From NCBI GenBank assembly GCA_051819685.1, contig JBNJGI010000002.1, positions 2,638 to 66,637 of the forward strand: DNA of 64,000 nt, given 5' to 3'. Origin of the DNA: Nanobdellota archaeon. Lineage in GTDB: Archaea > Nanobdellota > Nanobdellia > Woesearchaeales > DATGWN01. Below, piece by piece: positions 1,018 through 62,873 of the stretch (within the stretch, counting starts at the first letter, position 1; the number at the start of each line of letters is the position of its first letter). A program made the position numbers and the translations under genes. Under the pieces are notes generated by a model. That model was not told the DNA's origin, searched no databases, and was given only the letters and a program-made list of their open reading frames with translations.

Positions 1018-1167
1018 GGCACATAAATTAATTTAATAATGATATTGCCTTGAAGTAGTTTTTGGATTTGAGGTAATAAATGGAACGAATAACAGGAGCC
1101 AAATTTAATTAATTTCATCCAGAAAACTTAACAATTGTTTGCAATATCACTCATTTTTATGGATGTG
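1018..1167 (+). mobile_element. R1 repeat (MITE-like, TIR-bounded), short form, copy A
   Basis: Left end is ggcacataaattaatttaataatgatattgccttgaag and right end is gcaatatcactcatttttatggatgtg. The core is homologous to the copies at 4215, 7293, 23290, 55183, 58965 and 62599. I define + orientation as GGCACAT..GATATTGCCTTGAAG at the 5' end. Confidence 0.75.
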
Positions 1168-4175: not shown

Positions 4176-4214
4176 AATAATTTATTTATACCTTTATATT
4201 TTTGATGGTTATAT

Positions 4215-4365
4215 GGCAAATATAATAAACGAGTTATGATGTTGCCTTGAAGTAGTTTTTTAATTTGCGGTAAGGAGTAGAACGACTTACAGGAGCGCAA
4301 ATTATATCAAGTTCACCCGGAGGACCGAACATTTGTTCGCAACATCACCATTTTTATAGATGTGC
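4215..4365 (+). mobile_element. R1 repeat, short form, copy B
   Basis: ggcaaatataataaacgagttatgatgttgccttgaagtag...tttgcggtaaggagtagaacgacttacaggagcgcaaa...gttcgcaacatcaccatttttatagatgtgc. It is flanked by tggttata(t/c) at 4206-4214 and 4366-4374. Confidence 0.8.
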
Positions 4366-4374
4366 TGGTTATAC

Positions 4375-4417
4375 GGCAAATATAATAAACGAGTTATGAT
4401 GTTAACTTATGAGATGC
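4375..4417 (+). mobile_element. R1 mini-element (left TIR joined to a right-TIR remnant), immediately after copy B
   Basis: ggcaaatataataaacgagttatgatgtt is identical to the left TIR of copy B. It is followed by aacttatgagatgc, which resembles the right-TIR tail. Confidence 0.6.
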
Positions 4418-6802: not shown

Positions 6803-7210
6803 ATGCCACACCAATGTGTAAGATGCGGAAAACTAATAGAAGACGGATCTAATGAGATTCTTCAGGGATGTAAAAATTGTGGAGGAAAGTTATTTTTCTT
6901 TATCAAGAAATCCAAGCTTAAGGAGATGGAGAATAAACCTGCTGAAAATCTTACTACAAAGGATAAGAAGCAGATAGAGAAAGATGTTGTTGATTTAATT
7001 GGAAAAGAATATAATCCTGATGCCCCAGTTATACTTAATTTTGAAAGCGTTCGCGTGTCTAAACCAGGGAAATTTGAACTTGATCTTGTAAGTCTTTTCG
7101 ATCAGAAAAAACCTTTGGTTTATAAGCTTGAAGAAGGGAAATACATGATAGATGTTGCTACAACTTTTGAACATGCTTCAAAAGGCAGTAAAAGAATCAA
7201 AGAAAAGTGA
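6803..7210 (+). CDS. Zn-ribbon containing protein (COG3364/DUF2072-like)
   Basis: N-terminal CxxC...CxxC ribbon: MPHQCVRCGKLIEDGSNEILQGCKNCGGKLFFF. Confidence 0.55.
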   Translation: MPHQCVRCGKLIEDGSNEILQGCKNCGGKLFFFIKKSKLKEMENKPAENLTTKDKKQIEKDVVDLIGKEYNPDAPVILNFESVRVSKPGKFELDLVSLFDQKKPLVYKLEEGKYMIDVATTFEHASKGSKRIKEK

Positions 7211-7292
7211 TAGATAAATATATTATATCTTTTTTATTTTTTAATTTTTTCTAAATTATAAAAAAATTTCAGTCAAAGATATTAGATAGAGG

Positions 7293-7445
7293 GACACAAT
7301 CACAAAAATGAGTGATATTGCGAACAACTCTTCGGCCTCTGGACGAACTTTATTTAATTTACGCTCCTGTAAGTCGTTTTACTCCTTACTGCAAATTAAA
7401 AAACTACTTCAAGGCAATATCATCATTAATTTTGTTACATGTGCC
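7293..7445 (-). mobile_element. R1 repeat, short form, copy C, with perfect 8-bp flanking duplication
   Basis: gacacaatcacaaaaatgagtgatattgcgaac...cttcaaggcaatatcatcattaattttgttacatgtgcc. gatagagg occurs at 7285-7292 and again at 7446-7453, directly abutting both ends. Confidence 0.85.
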
Positions 7446-7491
7446 GATAGAGGTATAAATTTTTAAATAATTTATAATTATTATAATTAAA

Positions 7492-8790
7492 ATGGAACTT
7501 GCAAATGCTAAGGGAACGAAAGATTACTTACCTGAGGAAATGATAATTCTAAATGAAATCATGACAAGATTAAGGATATATTTTGAAAGAGCAGGATTTA
7601 ATCCTCTTACAACACCTGCGATAGAAAAAATGGATGTTTTGGGTGCAAAATATGCAGGAGGATCTGAAATCCTTAAAGAAACATTCCAATTTAAAGACCA
7701 AGGTGAAAGAGAACTAGGGCTTAGATATGATTTGACAGTTCCTTTTGCAAGGGTTACAGGACAAAACCCTGAATTAAAATTTCCTTTTAAAAGATACCAA
7801 ATGGAAAAAGTATATCGTGATGGTCCTGTCGGACCAGGAAGATACAGAGAATTCTGGCAGTGTGATATAGATATGGTTGGTACAAAATCAATGAAAGCTG
7901 AAGCAGAAGTTTTATCGATTGCTGAGGAATTTTTCAAATCTTATGATTTTAATCCACTTATAAAATTAAATAATAGAAAAATTATGAATTCACTTCTTGA
8001 CAACTTTAAAATCGATAATAAAACTCCAGTAATACTGGTTATAGATAAATTTCTTAAAATGGATAAAAAAGATCTTGTAGGAGAACTTATTGATATAGGG
8101 TATGAAAAAGAAGAATCATCTGAAATTATAGATTTATTTGAAAGCTTAAGTAAATTAGATTCGAATGAAGAGAAGATTAAAGCCTGTAAAAAAATGATTA
8201 AAAGTGATGAAGGTAAAGAAGGGATAGAAGAGATAGAGCAGATACTTACTTATTGTAATAATTATGGTTTGAGTTCTGTTAGATTCGACCCGATACTTGC
8301 AAGAGGTCTTAATTATTATACTGGCCCTGTGTTTGAAACAGTGCTCGAAGGAAATAAAATAACGAGCTGTGTGTGTGCGGGCGGGCGCTTTGATAAGATG
8401 ATTGGAGATTTTCTTGAAAGCAAAGAAGAATTCCCTGCTGTTGGTTTAAGTTTTGGTGTAAGCAGGATATTTGATGCACTTATAGCAGATAATAAAATAA
8501 AAAACTCAAAAACCGTAACTCAAGTATTGGTTATTTCTATGAATCAGGATAAGTTTGCTATGCAGGTAACAAAAAAACTTAGAAGTAAAGGTATAAATAC
8601 AGAAATTGATATTATGGAGAGGAAAATAAGAAAAAATCTTGATTATGCTAATGGGATGAAGATACCTTTTGCAGTTATAATTGGAGAAAATGAAGTTGAA
8701 TCAGGGAAAATAACTTTAAAAAACCTTGATACCGGCGAACAAAAAAATATAGGGGTTGAAGAAGCAGGAAAAATTATCTTAAATACTTGA
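7492..8790 (+). CDS. hisS: histidine--tRNA ligase
   Basis: Class II aaRS motifs LRYDLTVPFAR, YREFWQCDID and AGGRFD, plus a C-terminal anticodon-binding domain. Confidence 0.9.
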   Translation: MELANAKGTKDYLPEEMIILNEIMTRLRIYFERAGFNPLTTPAIEKMDVLGAKYAGGSEILKETFQFKDQGERELGLRYDLTVPFARVTGQNPELKFPFKRYQMEKVYRDGPVGPGRYREFWQCDIDMVGTKSMKAEAEVLSIAEEFFKSYDFNPLIKLNNRKIMNSLLDNFKIDNKTPVILVIDKFLKMDKKDLVGELIDIGYEKEESSEIIDLFESLSKLDSNEEKIKACKKMIKSDEGKEGIEEIEQILTYCNNYGLSSVRFDPILARGLNYYTGPVFETVLEGNKITSCVCAGGRFDKMIGDFLESKEEFPAVGLSFGVSRIFDALIADNKIKNSKTVTQVLVISMNQDKFAMQVTKKLRSKGINTEIDIMERKIRKNLDYANGMKIPFAVIIGENEVESGKITLKNLDTGEQKNIGVEEAGKIILNT

Positions 8791-8813: not shown

Positions 8814-8988
8814 GTTGAAGGAAAGGAGGGAAGTATAAAACCCCTTTGAAAAAGTCAATTTGTAAAGGCTAATTATTTTGTCTGGGTGAAATTGATTGAA
8901 TTTGCGCTCCTGTAAGTCTTTTAACTCCTTACCACAAATTCAAATATTGCTTCAATGTAATATCATCACTCATTTTGTTATATGTGCC
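8814..8988 (-). mobile_element. R1 repeat, truncated long form, copy D
   Basis: It begins inside the long-form insert (gttgaaggaaaggagggaagtataaaacccctttgaaaaagtcaatttgtaaaggctaattattttgtctgggtgaa, compare 25200-25275). It ends with cttcaatgtaatatcatcactcattttgttatatgtgcc. The right-TIR end is missing. Confidence 0.75.
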
Positions 8989-23088: not shown

Positions 23089-23140
23089 TGAAAGTAAAGA
23101 AGGAAATTAAGTTTATAATTTTTTTGTTTATATAGTTAGC

Positions 23141-23212
23141 GCATAAGATTATTATATTTTTATATTGCCTTGCAGAAAACCCAAAAATTTGGCTAGACTA
23201 ATTCTATCAAAT
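23141..23212 (+). repeat. R2 repeat module, copy b
   Basis: gcataagattattatatttttatattgccttgcagaaaacccaaaaatttggctagactaattctatcaaat aligns with 55361-55433. Confidence 0.8.
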
Positions 23213-23220
23213 TTAGCAAT

Positions 23221-23285
23221 AGTTAAACTATTAGCGTTTAATTATTATGCGCAATATAAATAAATTTTATTTATGTCGGCGACTA
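23221..23285 (+). repeat. R3 repeat module, copy a
   Basis: agttaaactattagcgtttaattattatgcgcaatataaataaattttatttatgtcggcgacta aligns with 48638-48703, 49104-49169 and the reverse complement of 52306-52371. Confidence 0.8.
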
Positions 23286-23289
23286 ATAT

Positions 23290-23443
23290 GGCACAATTAC
23301 AAAATTAGTGATATTTCGAACGAAAATTAAGTCCTTAGAGTAAACTGGATTGAATTTGCGCCCCTTGTAAGTTGTTTCACTTCTTACCATAAATTCAAAA
23401 AATACTTCAAGACAATATCATCACTTATTTTATTGTAAGTGTC
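23290..23443 (-). mobile_element. R1 repeat, short form, copy G
   Basis: ggcacaattacaaaattagtgatatttcgaacg...tgaatttgcgccccttgtaagttgtttcacttcttaccataaattc...cttcaagacaatatcatcacttattttattgtaagtgtcg. Confidence 0.8.
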
Positions 23444-25058: not shown

Positions 25059-25375
25059 GGTACATCCATAAAAATGAATGATGTTGCGAACTATAGTTCA
25101 GTAAACTGTTCCGGCACGCTGTCAAGGAAAACCTTTCGGCGGTTTCAACAAGTAGAAACTTTTAGTGCGGTATAGTCACTTTGTTCCTGGCCTTAAACAA
25201 GTTTAAGGAAAGTAGAAGGGTATAAAACCCCCTGAACAAGTCAATTTGTAAAGGCAAATTATTTTGTCCGGGTGAAATTGATTGAATTTGCGCTCCTGTA
25301 GACCGTTTCACTCCTCACCGCAAGTTAAAAAAACACTTCAAGACAATATTATCATTTAATCTTATTCTATGAGCC
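25059..25375 (-). mobile_element. R1 repeat, long form (~317 nt), copy H
   Basis: The ends are as in short copies (ggtacatccataaaaatgaatgatgttgcgaac ... cttcaagacaatattatcatttaat...gagcc). About 190 nt of GC-richer sequence (25093-25266) replaces the ~14-nt aaatgttcggtcct segment of the short copies. Confidence 0.85.
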
Positions 25376-48562: not shown

Positions 48563-48624
48563 GGTACATAAAATAAAACAAGTGCTGATATTTAAAGCAA
48601 TATCACTCATTTTTATACATGTGC
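48563..48624 (+). mobile_element. R1 mini-element (left TIR directly joined to right TIR)
   Basis: ggtacataaaataaaacaagtgctgatattt + aaagcaatatcactcatttttatacatgtgc. Confidence 0.7.
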
Positions 48625-48637
48625 TCAAATTTCGTAA

Positions 48638-48703
48638 AGTTAAACCATTAGTGTTTAATTATCCTGCGCCATATAAAATATACTTTATTTATTTCGTCTA
48701 CTA
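48638..48703 (+). repeat. R3 repeat module, copy b (left member of the 66-bp direct repeat pair)
   Basis: agttaaaccattagtgtttaattatcctgcgccatataaaatatactttatttatttcgtctacta differs at one position from 49104-49169. Confidence 0.9.
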
Positions 48704-48707
48704 TATA

Positions 48708-49088
48708 ATGAAAAAACTTTTATATCTTTATAACATTCATAATTTTATGGTAATAGATGATTTTGTTTTGAAAGATCCCCTGTTTCATGTTGGAGAAAGG
48801 GTTCTTGATTACGAGAAAATTGTGAAAGCTTCTGATGAAGATTTTGCAAGATTTTATTTAGAATTGATGATTGAATATAGAGATAAAGATGGCTGGTGGA
48901 GTGATGGTAAAATACCTGAATGTAATGAATGTCATAAAGAAATTCAGAGACCTGAAGACTTAAGGCGTTATCATGGCCTTTCAATGCACCCTTCTTGTTT
49001 TAGACAATATTATACAAGAGAAGGGGATGATGAGGGTATAATGGATAAATATTGGCAAAGAGTTGCAAATTTAGTCTTGGATTCTTGA
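48708..49088 (+). CDS. small hypothetical protein with CxxC...HxxC zinc-finger-like motif
   Basis: PECNECHKEIQRPEDLRRYHGLSMHPSCF. The track ORF starts at a GTG at 48582 inside repeat DNA. The ATG at 48708 (MKKLLYLYN...) lies ~30 nt after the R3 TATA-like catataaaata. An alternative start (MVIDDF) is at 48747. Confidence 0.55.
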   Translation: MKKLLYLYNIHNFMVIDDFVLKDPLFHVGERVLDYEKIVKASDEDFARFYLELMIEYRDKDGWWSDGKIPECNECHKEIQRPEDLRRYHGLSMHPSCFRQYYTREGDDEGIMDKYWQRVANLVLDS

Positions 49089-49103
49089 ATTTATTCGAAA
49101 AAT

Positions 49104-49169
49104 AGTTAAACTATTAGTGTTTAATTATCCTGCGCCATATAAAATATACTTTATTTATTTCGTCTACTA
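49104..49169 (+). repeat. R3 repeat module, copy c (right member of the 66-bp direct repeat pair)
   Basis: agttaaactattagtgtttaattatcctgcgccatataaaatatactttatttatttcgtctacta. Confidence 0.9.
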
Positions 49170-49215
49170 AAATAAAACATCTTTTCGCAATAGTACTCAT
49201 TTTTGTAAGTATGCC
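49170..49215 (+). repeat. R1 right-TIR fragment following R3 copy c
   Basis: aaataaaacatcttttcgcaatagtactcatttttgtaagtatgcc matches the right-TIR consensus gcaatatcactcatttttgtgaatgtgcc. Confidence 0.6.
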
Positions 49216-50289: not shown

Positions 50290-50298
50290 TAGCAACAA

Positions 50299-50608
50299 GC
50301 ATGTGTATTTAAAAGAATGAGAATATTGTATTAAGTATTTATTGAATTTGCAGTAAGAATTGAAACGACTTACAGGAGAGCAAATTCAACCAAGTTCACC
50401 CGGACAAAATAATTTGCCTTTACAAATTGACTTGTTCGGGGGTTTTATACCCTCCTACTCTCCTTAAACTTGTTTAAGGCCAGGAAAAAAGTGACTATGC
50501 CGTGCTAAAAGTTTCTACTTGTTGAAACCGCCGAAAGGTTTTCCTTGACAGCGTGCCGGAACAGTTTACTGAATTTTTGTTCGCAATATCACTAATTTTA
50601 TGAATTTG
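50299..50608 (+). mobile_element. R1 repeat, long form (~310 nt), copy I
   Basis: It is the reverse complement of copy H over its whole length. The 40-nt tccggcacgctgtcaaggaaaacctttcggcggtttcaac is identical in both. Ends are gcatgtgtatttaaaagaatgagaatattg ... tcgcaatatcactaattttatgaatttg. Confidence 0.85.
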
Positions 50609-50647
50609 TTTTTTCTACACACTTCAAAACTGAATTAATTTATTTTA

Positions 50648-53982: not shown

Positions 53983-55140
53983 TCAGGATATTTTGTCAAG
54001 AAATGAAGGTTTTCTTAATTTTTTCACAAATTTTTTTATTAGTTTAATTGTATAATCAATCTCTTCTTCTGTATTGTATCTGCTTAAAGTTAATCTTATC
54101 GAAGCCTCTGCTTGTTTATTATCAAGACCAATTGCTTTTAAAACATAAGAAGGTTCAGAGCTTGCTTCAGAACATGCGCTTCCAGTTGATGAAGATATAT
54201 TTTTAGAGTCTAACATTGCACCTAAAGTATCACCTGCTATATCTTCGATAAGAAAATTAGTATTATTACATAGTCTTTTAGTATCCGAGCCATTAAGATT
54301 AGTTCCAGGTATTTCTAAAATCCCTGAAATCAACTTATTCCTTATTTTAGATATATGGTTTGTATGTTTTTTCTTATCACTTTGTTTAACAGCTTCTGCG
54401 AAACCGACAATTCCAGGTACATTTTCAGTCCCAGACCTTAAATTAAATTCATGCCCCCCACCATGTTGCCATGATTCTATTTCAGTACCTTTTCTTATAT
54501 ATAAAGCACCTACACCTTTAGGTCCATGTATCTTATGTGAATTTAGAGTTATTAGATCAATATTTTGCTTTTGTACATCGATTTCAGTTTTTGTATAAGA
54601 TTGACATGCGTCAGTATGAAAGTATATTTTATTATCTTTACATATTTTTCCTATTTCTTCTATATCATTTATAGTGCCTATTTCATTATTTCCATGTATT
54701 ACTGAAACTAATATTGTATCTTTTCTTATTTTTGATTTGAGATCTTCTAATGAAATAAAACCTTCTTTATCGACATCAAGATATGTCACTTCAAATCCCT
54801 GATTTTCAAGCCATTTGCATGAATTTAAAACACATTTGTGCTCTACTTTTGTGGTTATTATATGTTTTTTTTTGTTTGTAAATGCGATACTTTTTAATGC
54901 AAAATTATTGGATTCCGTTCCTCCTGAGGTAAATATTATCTCTTCTGGTTGAGCATTTATCGACTTTGCTATAGTTTTTCTTGCTTTTTCTATAGATTCC
55001 TTAGCATCGATACCTGAAGTGTGAGCAGAGGAAGGGTTTGCATATTCTTTAATAAAATAAGGTTTCATAGCTTCAAGAACTTTTTCATCAACTTTAGTGG
55101 TAGCAGCATTATCCAAATATATTTTTTTTAATCTCATCAT
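53983..55140 (-). CDS. nifS: cysteine desulfurase (NifS/IscS type), paralog 2
   Basis: It carries the same motif set (SGGTESNN, HTDACQ, NSHKIHGPKGVGALY, RSGTEN, STGSACSE). It shares a 50-nt identical tract with paralog 1. Confidence 0.85.
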   Translation of the reverse strand: MMRLKKIYLDNAATTKVDEKVLEAMKPYFIKEYANPSSAHTSGIDAKESIEKARKTIAKSINAQPEEIIFTSGGTESNNFALKSIAFTNKKKHIITTKVEHKCVLNSCKWLENQGFEVTYLDVDKEGFISLEDLKSKIRKDTILVSVIHGNNEIGTINDIEEIGKICKDNKIYFHTDACQSYTKTEIDVQKQNIDLITLNSHKIHGPKGVGALYIRKGTEIESWQHGGGHEFNLRSGTENVPGIVGFAEAVKQSDKKKHTNHISKIRNKLISGILEIPGTNLNGSDTKRLCNNTNFLIEDIAGDTLGAMLDSKNISSSTGSACSEASSEPSYVLKAIGLDNKQAEASIRLTLSRYNTEEEIDYTIKLIKKFVKKLRKPSFLDKIS

Positions 55141-55182
55141 ATAATATAAACTTATATTTTCTTTTAAAGTTTGCTATTGCTT

Positions 55183-55336
55183 AGCACATACAACAAAATA
55201 AGTGATAATATTGCCTTGAAGTAATTTTTGAATTTGCGGTAAGGAGTAGAACGACTTACAGGAGCGTAAATTCAATCAAGTTCGCCCGGAGGAACGAACA
55301 TTTGTTCTCAACATCGCTTACTTTTTTAATTGTGTC
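55183..55336 (+). mobile_element. R1 repeat, short form, copy J, with perfect 8-bp flanking duplication
   Basis: agcacatacaacaaaataagtgataatattgccttgaag...tttgcggtaaggagtagaacgacttacaggagcgtaaa...ctcaacatcgcttacttttttaattgtgtc. tattgctt occurs at 55175-55182 and 55337-55344. Confidence 0.85.
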
Positions 55337-55344
55337 TATTGCTT

Positions 55345-55433
55345 GGCACATTTATTCAACGACATAAGATTGTTATATTTTTATATTGCCTTGCAGAAAA
55401 CCCAGAAATTTGGCCAGACTAATTCTGTCAAAT
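55345..55433 (+). repeat. R2 repeat module, copy c, with its own GGCACAT-type end
   Basis: ggcacatttattcaacgacataagattgttatatttttatattgccttgcagaaaacccagaaatttggccagactaattctgtcaaat begins immediately after the right flanking duplication of copy J. Confidence 0.8.
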
Positions 55434-55547
55434 ATTGACACTTAAAATAAAATAAGTTATATTGTTACAATAAAACATTATCACTAATTTTATTTTATAT
55501 GCTCGAAAACCAACAATTATAAAAACAAGTAGTATTGAAATTAGAAT

Positions 55548-56171
55548 ATGGTAGTGAACAGAAAATATCTTTCTAAAAATACAGCAGATAAAGTACACAA
55601 AGAATTGGAAAAAGGACTGGATCTTCTCAATGAAATCGATAAACCAATTATAACTTTTTTTGGTTCTCATAAAGGTAAACCAGGAGAAAAGTATTATGAT
55701 GCTGCGAAAAATGCATCTAAAGAACTTGTAAAAAAAGGTTATGCTATAATGTCAGGAGGTGGTCCAGGAATTATGCATGCAGCTAATTCAGGTGCTAAAG
55801 AAGTTAAGGGAGAATCTATAGGTATAGTCGCAGATATGCTTTCAGAAGAAAAAATGGCTGATAACATATTTACTCACAAAATAGCATTCGATTATATGTT
55901 TGTAAGAAGATTTATTTTAGCGATAAAAAGCGATGCTTTAATATTTTTCCCTGGAGGTTATGGTACCTTCAACGAATTATTTGAGTATATTGTTCTTATG
56001 CAGACAAAAATGGTCGAAAAAGTTCCTATTCTCTTATATGATGAGGATTTTTGGAAAAAGCTTGATGAATGGAACGATGAACTTGTAAAAAAAGAATACA
56101 TCAAGAAATCCGATCTTAAGCTTTTCAAAAGTATAAATGATATAAAAGAACTAATAAAATCGATAAAATGA
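55548..56171 (+). CDS. LOG-family / TIGR00730 Rossmann-fold nucleotide-binding protein
   Basis: SGGGPGIMHAANSGA and the PGGYGTFNELFE signature. Confidence 0.8.
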   Translation: MVVNRKYLSKNTADKVHKELEKGLDLLNEIDKPIITFFGSHKGKPGEKYYDAAKNASKELVKKGYAIMSGGGPGIMHAANSGAKEVKGESIGIVADMLSEEKMADNIFTHKIAFDYMFVRRFILAIKSDALIFFPGGYGTFNELFEYIVLMQTKMVEKVPILLYDEDFWKKLDEWNDELVKKEYIKKSDLKLFKSINDIKELIKSIK

Positions 56172-58964: not shown

Positions 58965-59121
58965 GGATATAACACTTAAAATAAAATAAATGATGATATT
59001 GCCTTGAAGTAGTTTTGAATTTGCGGTAAGGAGTGAAACGACTTACAGGAGCGCAAATTCAATCAAGTTCGCCCGGAGGAACGAACATTTATTCGCAATA
59101 TCACTCATTTTTGTGAATGTT
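58965..59121 (+). mobile_element. R1 repeat, short form, copy K
   Basis: ggatataacacttaaaataaaataaatgatgatattgccttgaag...tttgcggtaaggagtgaaacgacttacaggagcgcaaa...gcaatatcactcatttttgtgaatgt. Confidence 0.8.
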
Positions 59122-59122
59122 T

Positions 59123-59192
59123 CGGATATAACACTTAAAATAAAAATCAATAATATTATCTTGAAGCAACATAACTTATTTTATGGATGTGC
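59123..59192 (+). mobile_element. R1 mini-element directly following copy K
   Basis: cggatataacacttaaaataaaaatcaataatattatcttgaag + caacataacttattttatggatgtgc. Its left TIR shares the idiosyncratic variants of copy K. Confidence 0.65.
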
Positions 59193-62442: not shown

Positions 62443-62598
62443 AAGATTATTCTTGCATTTATAAGTTTTATATTATCTTATTAAAAATTAATTATCAAAA
62501 AAAATTGCTCGCTTTTCAGATTAAGCCTATTTCATTATCTCAAGTTATTATAATTAATATTATTAGCTGTTAAAAAGCATCGTAAAACTTTAATTTTA

Positions 62599-62756
62599 AA
62601 GCACATTCACAAAAGTGAGTGATATTGCGAACAAATGTTCAGCCTTCTAGGTGAACTTGATTAAATTTCCGCTCCTGTAAGTCGTTTCACCCCTTACTAC
62701 AAATCCAAAAACTATTTCAAGGCAATATAAAAATATAACAATCTTATGTCGCCTAC
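62599..62756 (-). mobile_element. R1 repeat, short form, copy L, with variant (R2-type) left end
   Basis: gcacattcacaaaagtgagtgatattgcgaacaaatgttcagcc...ccgctcctgtaagtcgtttcaccccttactacaaatcc...tttcaaggcaatataaaaatataacaatcttatgtcgcc. taatttta occurs at 62591-62598 and 62757-62764. Confidence 0.75.
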
Positions 62757-62873
62757 TAATTTTAAGTTAAATTTAAAAACAATTATATATTACAATAAAT
62801 GATTTTCTGGCACCCGCAACAGGGAGGCTGGTTTAGCGGACAACAGTCTATTGTCTTGCATGAGGTTATAAAA

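Follow-up and report, generated by a model that had tools for sequence, protein, structure and literature searches.

The R1 repeat family of this archaeal genome is, with high probability, a non-autonomous DNA transposon (MITE) that was moved by a transposase supplied in trans and acting with an 8-bp staggered cut. The first-pass annotation of the window (the whole 64,000-nucleotide stretch analysed here, C2:2638-66637 of the assembly) had reported identical octamers on both sides of three R1 copies and had taken them as the strongest argument that R1 moved by transposition rather than arising by recombination. Our genome-wide analysis supports this claim: the repeats flanking R1 are fixed at 8 bp in length, variable in sequence and directly abut the inverted termini of the element. 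This traces the origin of the genome's densest repeat family to genuine transposition, with a staggered cut of 8 bp, and restricts the parent of R1 to families whose transposases leave 8-bp duplications. It also provides exact insertion coordinates for the R1 copies, so that a fixed distance to a TATA-like motif and an 8-bp adjacency of ends become testable.

The assembly comprises 930,447 bp (0.93 Mb) on 44 contigs, with 29.6% GC and 87% completeness, and its source belongs to a GTDB order of more than 130 families with genomes of 0.6-2.7 Mb. The genes around the R1 copies of the window are of housekeeping type with an archaeal flavour, and encode an OapC-like origin-associated protein, HisRS, an enzyme of the tRNA-guanine transglycosylase family (PF01702), a RIO kinase and AspRS. 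The best relatives of the HisRS are archaeal MAGs at 45-46% identity, which together with the small genomes of the order suggests a DPANN-like picture. Self-BLAST of the assembly identifies a sole multi-copy coding repeat, formed by three pilin-like/DUF1566 paralogues (C7:21772-23163, C12:27949-29356 and C28:3652-5058, one of them at a contig end) that share an archaeal pilin-like signal peptide, KKSQTATEYLIILAVVIVIA, and DWRLP repeats.

Iterated nhmmer searches seeded with copy C find 133 R1 matches on 37 of the 44 contigs, 94 of them near full length. The class A consensus is 154 bp long (GGCACAATCACAAAAATGAGTGATATTGCGAAC...GGCAATATCATCACTCATTTTATTTTATGTGCC) and ends in imperfect terminal inverted repeats of about 30 nt, GGCACA...TGTGCC, which start as GGCACA-N5-AAAATGAGTGATATTGC... 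and carry the motif GGCACA-N5-AAAATGAGTGAT(.)ATTGC at both termini. The whole element folds into a single long hairpin (-30.7 kcal/mol, z = -7.6), and neither class A nor the 316-bp class B contains an ORF. Although ORFs of at least 110 aa make up 85% of the genome, 121 of the 133 matches have zero overlap with them. Class A copies have a median pairwise identity of 71% and the closest pair reaches 98%, so the family appears to be old, with some fairly recent members. The orientation of R1 relative to genes was also considered and rejected as a pattern; neither end faces gene starts clearly more often than the other. Beside these copies we observed mini elements of 58-84 nt that consist of two inverted ends only (window 48563-48624 and 55445-55502; C7:8830-8913). 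Speculatively, such copies fit abortive gap repair after excision.

The octamers reported for copies C and J are exact and abut both tips, gatagagg at copy C and tattgctt at copy J (Table 1). The tips of copy C read GACACA... and ...TGTGCC, and independent end-calling against the family consensus places them at the same bounds. The genes next to copy J are a divergent class-V aminotransferase gene (53983-55140) on one side and a LOG-family gene (55548-56171) on the other.

For copy L, the presence of taatttta on both sides (62591-62598 and 62757-62764) held up, and its register proved ambiguous. The element is an R1/R2 hybrid with an R2-type right end (nhmmer R2 positions 112-153 at window 62716-62757), and the repeat in full is 9 nt, taattttaa (62591-62599 and 62757-62765). 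The register is ambiguous because it depends on where the foreign R2 tip stops. Read as AGCACA...CCTACT, copy L has an aattttaa register that abuts both tips; if the R2 tip is instead CTACTA, which the R2 family suggests, the match is shifted by one base. The earlier caution that this match is weaker, its octamer being AT-only, was thus justified, and the duplication of copy L is best described as plausible but ambiguous. Three R1-left/R2-right hybrids joined within CAAGGCAATAT were observed in the assembly, namely copy L, C20:7708-7859 and C6:33814-33973. The two siblings of copy L were considered for fixing its register and rejected, their left ends being too decayed.

Table 1. R1 and R2 copies and associated features, in window coordinates unless a contig is named
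Feature	Coordinates	Strand	Remarks
R1 copy C	7293..7445	+	153 bp, class A; between OapC-like gene (6803-7210) and hisS (7492-8790)
Target-site duplication of copy C (GATAGAGG)	7285..7292 and 7446..7453		8/8 match, abuts tips
R1 copy J	55183..55336	-	class A, 154 bp; belongs to the younger subfamily
Duplication of copy J (TATTGCTT)	55175..55182 and 55337..55344		sequence given for + strand
Copy L	62600..62757	+	R1-left/R2-right hybrid, joined in the CAAGGCAATAT motif common to both families
R1 copy	4215..4366	-	7/8 duplication, GGTTATAT at 4207-4214 and GGTTATAC at 4367-4374; 34 nt of its own terminal repeat recur at 4375-4408
Class B R1 (316 bp)	25059..25375	+	165-nt passenger; flanks 6/8
Class B R1	50298..50610	-	no surviving duplication (1/8)
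Class A R1	23290..23443	+	decayed duplication, 5/8
Class A R1	58971..59123	-	no in-register 8-bp match; 13-nt repeat AAGTGTTATATCC spans right tip and 6 flank bases
R1 copy	1033..1163	-	bounds from nhmmer only
Truncated long (class B-like) R1	8814..8988	+	without left end
Empty R2	23136..23284	-	one copy of octamer TAAATTTG, which flanks R1 in R2::R1 composites
R2 in window	23136-23284, 55356-55440, 48600-49170
Passenger in window	25103-25267 and 50400-50567		inside class B copies
TTTAWA examples	7446-7465 and 55143-55182		at copy C and copy J, respectively
End-adjacent cases	4207-4408; 55337-55360; C13:20595-20890; C8:2900-3080; C18:119-330

We then scored the flanks of R1 across the genome. 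The tips of each near-full copy (n = 94) were set by end-to-end alignment to the consensus, and the 8 nt outside the left tip were compared with the 8 nt outside the right tip. As a null, left and right flanks of different copies were paired among the same 94, which preserves AT-richness. With class-aware ends, 17 copies have a perfect 8/8 match versus 0.03 expected, 28 match at 7/8 or better versus 0.46, and 40 at 6/8 or better versus 3.4. The 8-bp matches thus lie far above the AT-rich null. Blind to subfamily, the same test gives 14 perfect matches versus 0.02 expected and 23 at 7/8 or better versus 0.40. Exact abutting direct repeats of length k = 4 to 11, again counted blind to subfamily, number 1, 0, 1, 2, 14, 0, 0 and 0. 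The counts peak at k = 8 with none at k = 9-11, which shows that the R1 footprint is 8 bp, neither shorter nor longer. The octamers of the 28 copies with at least 7/8 are all different in sequence, and those that hold G and C include GATAGAGG, AATACCAG and ATTTACGG.

As expected if the octamers arise at insertion, decay of the duplication parallels decay of the element. The integrity of the duplication correlates with the similarity of the copy to the consensus (Spearman 0.35, p = 6e-4), and the perfect duplications are distributed as 9 in the top, 5 in the middle and 3 in the bottom third by similarity. The closest pair of copies (98% identical; C1:12327 and C3:30674) has a perfect duplication in both members. 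Only 30% of the near-full copies keep at least 7/8 positions, so most insertions are old.

Insertion sites with and without R1 can be compared within a second MITE family. R2 is 153 bp long with tips TAGTAG...CTACTA and has 93 matches genome-wide. Its duplication is only 3-4 bp (exact 3-mers in 15 of 27 versus 2.5 expected), so R2 is moved by a different transposase from that of R1. Six R2::R1 composites read ...TTACGAAATTT(G/A)-[R1]-AATATTTGACAGAATT..., and at least 15 intact empty R2 copies contain the target once, reading ...TTACGAAATTTGACAGAATT.... At that point the composites are 161-162 nt longer than empty R2, that is, 154 + 8. The target octamer, single in empty R2, is double in filled R2, its two copies now matching at 6-7 of 8 positions. 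The empty R2 copies are paralogous empty sites for R1. The composite has multiplied as a unit to at least 10 copies; therefore R2 mobility continued after that R1 insertion. The subterminal sequence of R2 (GGCGACATAA...ATATTGCCTTGCAG) resembles the R1 inverted repeat.

An 8-bp staggered cut followed by duplication is the chemistry of DDE-type transposases. In the proposed mechanism, a transposase supplied in trans would act on R1 as a deletion derivative, bind both of its ends and join them to a target site cleaved with an 8-bp stagger; repair of the gaps would then duplicate eight target bases, one copy on each side of R1. We infer the enzyme class (DDE) and its supply in trans from knowledge of which mechanisms leave such footprints. 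Movement could have been either cut-and-paste or copy-and-paste.

To look for the enzyme, the assembled 87% of the genome was searched in six frames with eight Pfam profiles: IS6 (PF13610), IS4/IS5 (PF01609), IS1595 (PF12762), IS256 (PF00872), ISL3 (PF01610), rve (PF00665; IS3/IS21/IS30/IS481), IS1 (PF03400) and IS66 (PF03050). No credible transposase match was obtained with any of the eight, all of which were positive in control genomes. A weak PF12762 match was dismissed, as it scores 13 bits, contains stops and lies inside a GNAT-like reading frame. Assembly-wide, no pair of R1-type or orphan ends encloses an ORF, and the ORFs cut off at contig ends, read by eye, look like housekeeping and surface proteins. 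Together with the lack of any multi-copy coding repeat besides the pilin-like paralogues, these results indicate that the parent element of R1 is lost, lies in the missing 13% of the genome or is outside it. The MITEs of Sulfolobus and haloarchaea are comparable, being deletion derivatives mobilised in trans in the same domain of life; however, they have an identifiable parent IS in the same genomes, whereas none is detectable for R1.

Searches beyond the assembly returned R1 from its source genome only. The consensus was compared with 30 relatives and is present in the source genome alone, and the end pattern, allowing up to 3 mismatches, has two chance-level matches among 300 genomes of the order. 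In JGI metagenome contigs the core pattern has two matches, in contigs of 65% GC and 64% GC, neither with R1. The end patterns have two chance matches in IMG/VR, one of them at a gene start, with no R1 and no full end. We found no sequencing run on record with the locus, and an exact look-up of the hisS protein gave no sister assembly.

The resemblance of R1 to insertion sequences of the IS6 family raises the question of whether R1 is a derivative of an IS26-like element, moved by IS6 transposase via copy-in or targeted reactions. We regard this as unlikely. IS6 elements do make 8-bp duplications, as do ISL3, IS1595, IS256, IS1, IS66 and ISH6. The R1 tip, GGCAC..., resembles that of IS26: 10 of 14 positions are identical between GGCACAATCACAAA and the IS26 end GGCACTGTTGCAAA, which we verified together with its location next to the IS26 transposase; this weak identity offers only a lead. 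The inverted repeats of R1 are about 30 nt long versus 14 nt in IS26. Some R1 copies are located exactly beside another end, and insertion beside a resident copy is a habit of IS26. Targeted insertion by IS26 is not known to duplicate its target, however, whereas the 8-mer is duplicated at R1, the adjacent-end cases included. Moreover, the IS6 DDE domain (PF13610) has no match in the genome, with control archaea positive in the same search. R1 is not demonstrably IS6-derived.

A very improbable alternative is that R1 was dispersed through recombination, gene conversion or segmental duplication of spacers, with the repeats as by-products. The family is indeed mosaic, with R1/R2 hybrids joined at a common 11-nt motif, R1-in-R2 composites and a local duplication of an end plus octamer at window 4207-4408, and recombination clearly produced or reshaped some R1 copies. 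However, the flanks past the octamers are unrelated between copies, and each copy has its own octamer, always of 8 bp and always touching the inverted termini. Filled minus empty sites equal exactly the element plus 8, a footprint that recombination does not make.

Marginally less probable again is that R1 represents a REP/REPIN-like or RPE-like palindrome dispersed via a tyrosine (HUH) transposase, or is maintained as an RNA element with a structural or regulatory role, instead of being a DDE-mobilised MITE. Its strong hairpin, its dense and intergenic placement and a centre that is better conserved than the ends would suit such an element. HUH/RAYT-mediated and single-strand mechanisms nevertheless leave no target duplication; because R1 has 8-bp duplications, it is not REP/REPIN-like. 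Rickettsia RPEs are in-frame insertions within protein-coding genes, whereas overlap with an ORF of at least 110 aa exceeds 50% of the match length in none of the 133 R1 matches; being outside ORFs, R1 is not RPE-like. A role as RNA would be at odds with private substitutions that are evenly spread, with no sign of post-insertion purifying selection, and Rfam returned nothing relevant for the window (gathering threshold) or for a class B copy (E-value threshold).

Finally, that the octamers are chance matches in AT-rich spacers and that R1 arose without transposition has a negligible probability and is refuted by the genome-wide flank null and the repeat-length counts: the genome has a low GC content and the copy L octamer is AT-only, but the composition-matched null predicts far fewer matches than observed, the signal is limited to k = 8 at zero offset, and several octamers hold G and C.

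Intergenic hairpins of about 150 bp that are often promoter-proximal and form mosaic subfamilies are also known as Correia elements in Neisseria and as ERIC/BIME-type repeats, and R1 resembles them in these respects. Correia elements duplicate TA and BIMEs are not known to make a duplication, whereas R1 duplicates 8 bp of arbitrary sequence. The likeness to prokaryotic MITEs goes further: like them, R1 is short, strictly intergenic and taxon-specific, lacks coding capacity and has inverted repeats at its ends, paralogous empty sites and many dispersed copies, and its fixed-length duplication falls within their range of 2-10 bp. It differs in that no partner IS, that is, no cognate autonomous element with matching ends, is known from the 87% complete assembly and that its sequence is absent from the relatives, order genomes, metagenomes and viruses scanned. 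Many accepted MITEs are likewise without a known partner. Structurally, R1 is therefore an ordinary MITE in all but this partner.

A census of MITEs has found MITE-dense DPANN and Woesearchaeal genomes, with one Woesearchaeal genome at 105 MITEs/Mb (PMC11602168); here, 133 R1 and 93 R2 matches are found in 0.93 Mb. A reduced, symbiont-type archaeal genome in which we detect no transposase thus contains more than 200 complete or fragmentary MITE copies, which bears on how reduced archaeal genomes acquire and tolerate mobile DNA. While the 8-bp duplication itself is an expected hallmark of MITEs, three other features are more unusual: the TATA spacing seen in both R1 and R2, the insertions next to another end and the absent transposase.

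The TATA spacing concerns the motif TTTAWA. Of the 94 left ends of R1, 13 have this motif starting exactly 14 nt outward of the tip, as do 15 of the 94 right ends (28/188 in all), versus 0.72 expected per position for 94 ends. At most of these ends the start codon is 43-49 nt off and the flanks are otherwise unrelated. Copies C and J have the same geometry, with 46 nt from the right tip of copy C to the hisS ATG and 43 nt at copy J. Beyond R2 tips, TTTAWA shows a similar peak at 13 nt (27 of 95 ends), although the duplication of R2 is shorter. The flanks of the reconstructed R1 targets are symmetric, T-rich on one side and A-rich on the other side.

These distances raise the possibility, which we consider doubtful, that R1 and independently R2 are guided to archaeal promoters, at their upstream edge, and are not placed at random in spacers. 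The TTTAWA peak is at least as frequent in R1 copies with an intact duplication (12 of 56 ends) as in old copies (16 of 132 ends), which speaks for a choice made at insertion rather than for slow purifying selection. Alternatively, very short spacers may tolerate an element at this position only, so that the spacing would reflect survival, and the data do not decide between the two. The source of the transposase, which has left no trace in the assembly, may be a virus, a plasmid or a host organism. If R1 and R2 do choose promoters, they would be a case of promoter-guided archaeal transposition in which mobilisation comes from outside the genome.

The second unusual feature is a sequence resembling the R1 tip that lies exactly 8 nt past the tip in five to six copies, in the layout [tip][8-mer][R1][8-mer]. 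Near-matches to the tip hexamer number 4 + 2 at a distance of 8 nt and 0-2 at each other distance from 0 to 24. A simple one-off insertion does not explain this arrangement. The case on contig C13 is a true tandem pair. At window 4207-4408, the two ends share private variants, which identifies the extra end, with its octamer, as locally duplicated from the copy itself. Copy J abuts an R2 arm with the tip GGCACAT, which directly follows its second octamer and leads into the arm at about 55356-55440. The layout could result from insertion beside a resident or pseudo end, from a dimer-like junction or from slippage between octamers.

Class B shows that a longer R1 derivative was also mobile. Its true left end is located about 175 nt further out, and with these outer ends three perfect and two near-perfect 8-mers are found. 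The 316-bp derivative therefore moved with the ends of class A and the same 8-bp footprint. The passenger is 165 nt long with 40% GC, occurs in about 20 R1 copies and has no Rfam match. Its median pairwise identity is 94% versus 70-78% for the R1 backbone that surrounds it in those copies, and most passenger-bearing copies are 95-99% identical to the passenger consensus. Host-level purifying selection on the better-conserved centre and the passenger was considered as a cause and rejected. Given the even spread of private substitutions along the element, the contrast between passenger and backbone reflects mosaic ends, that is, variants shared at the level of subfamilies.
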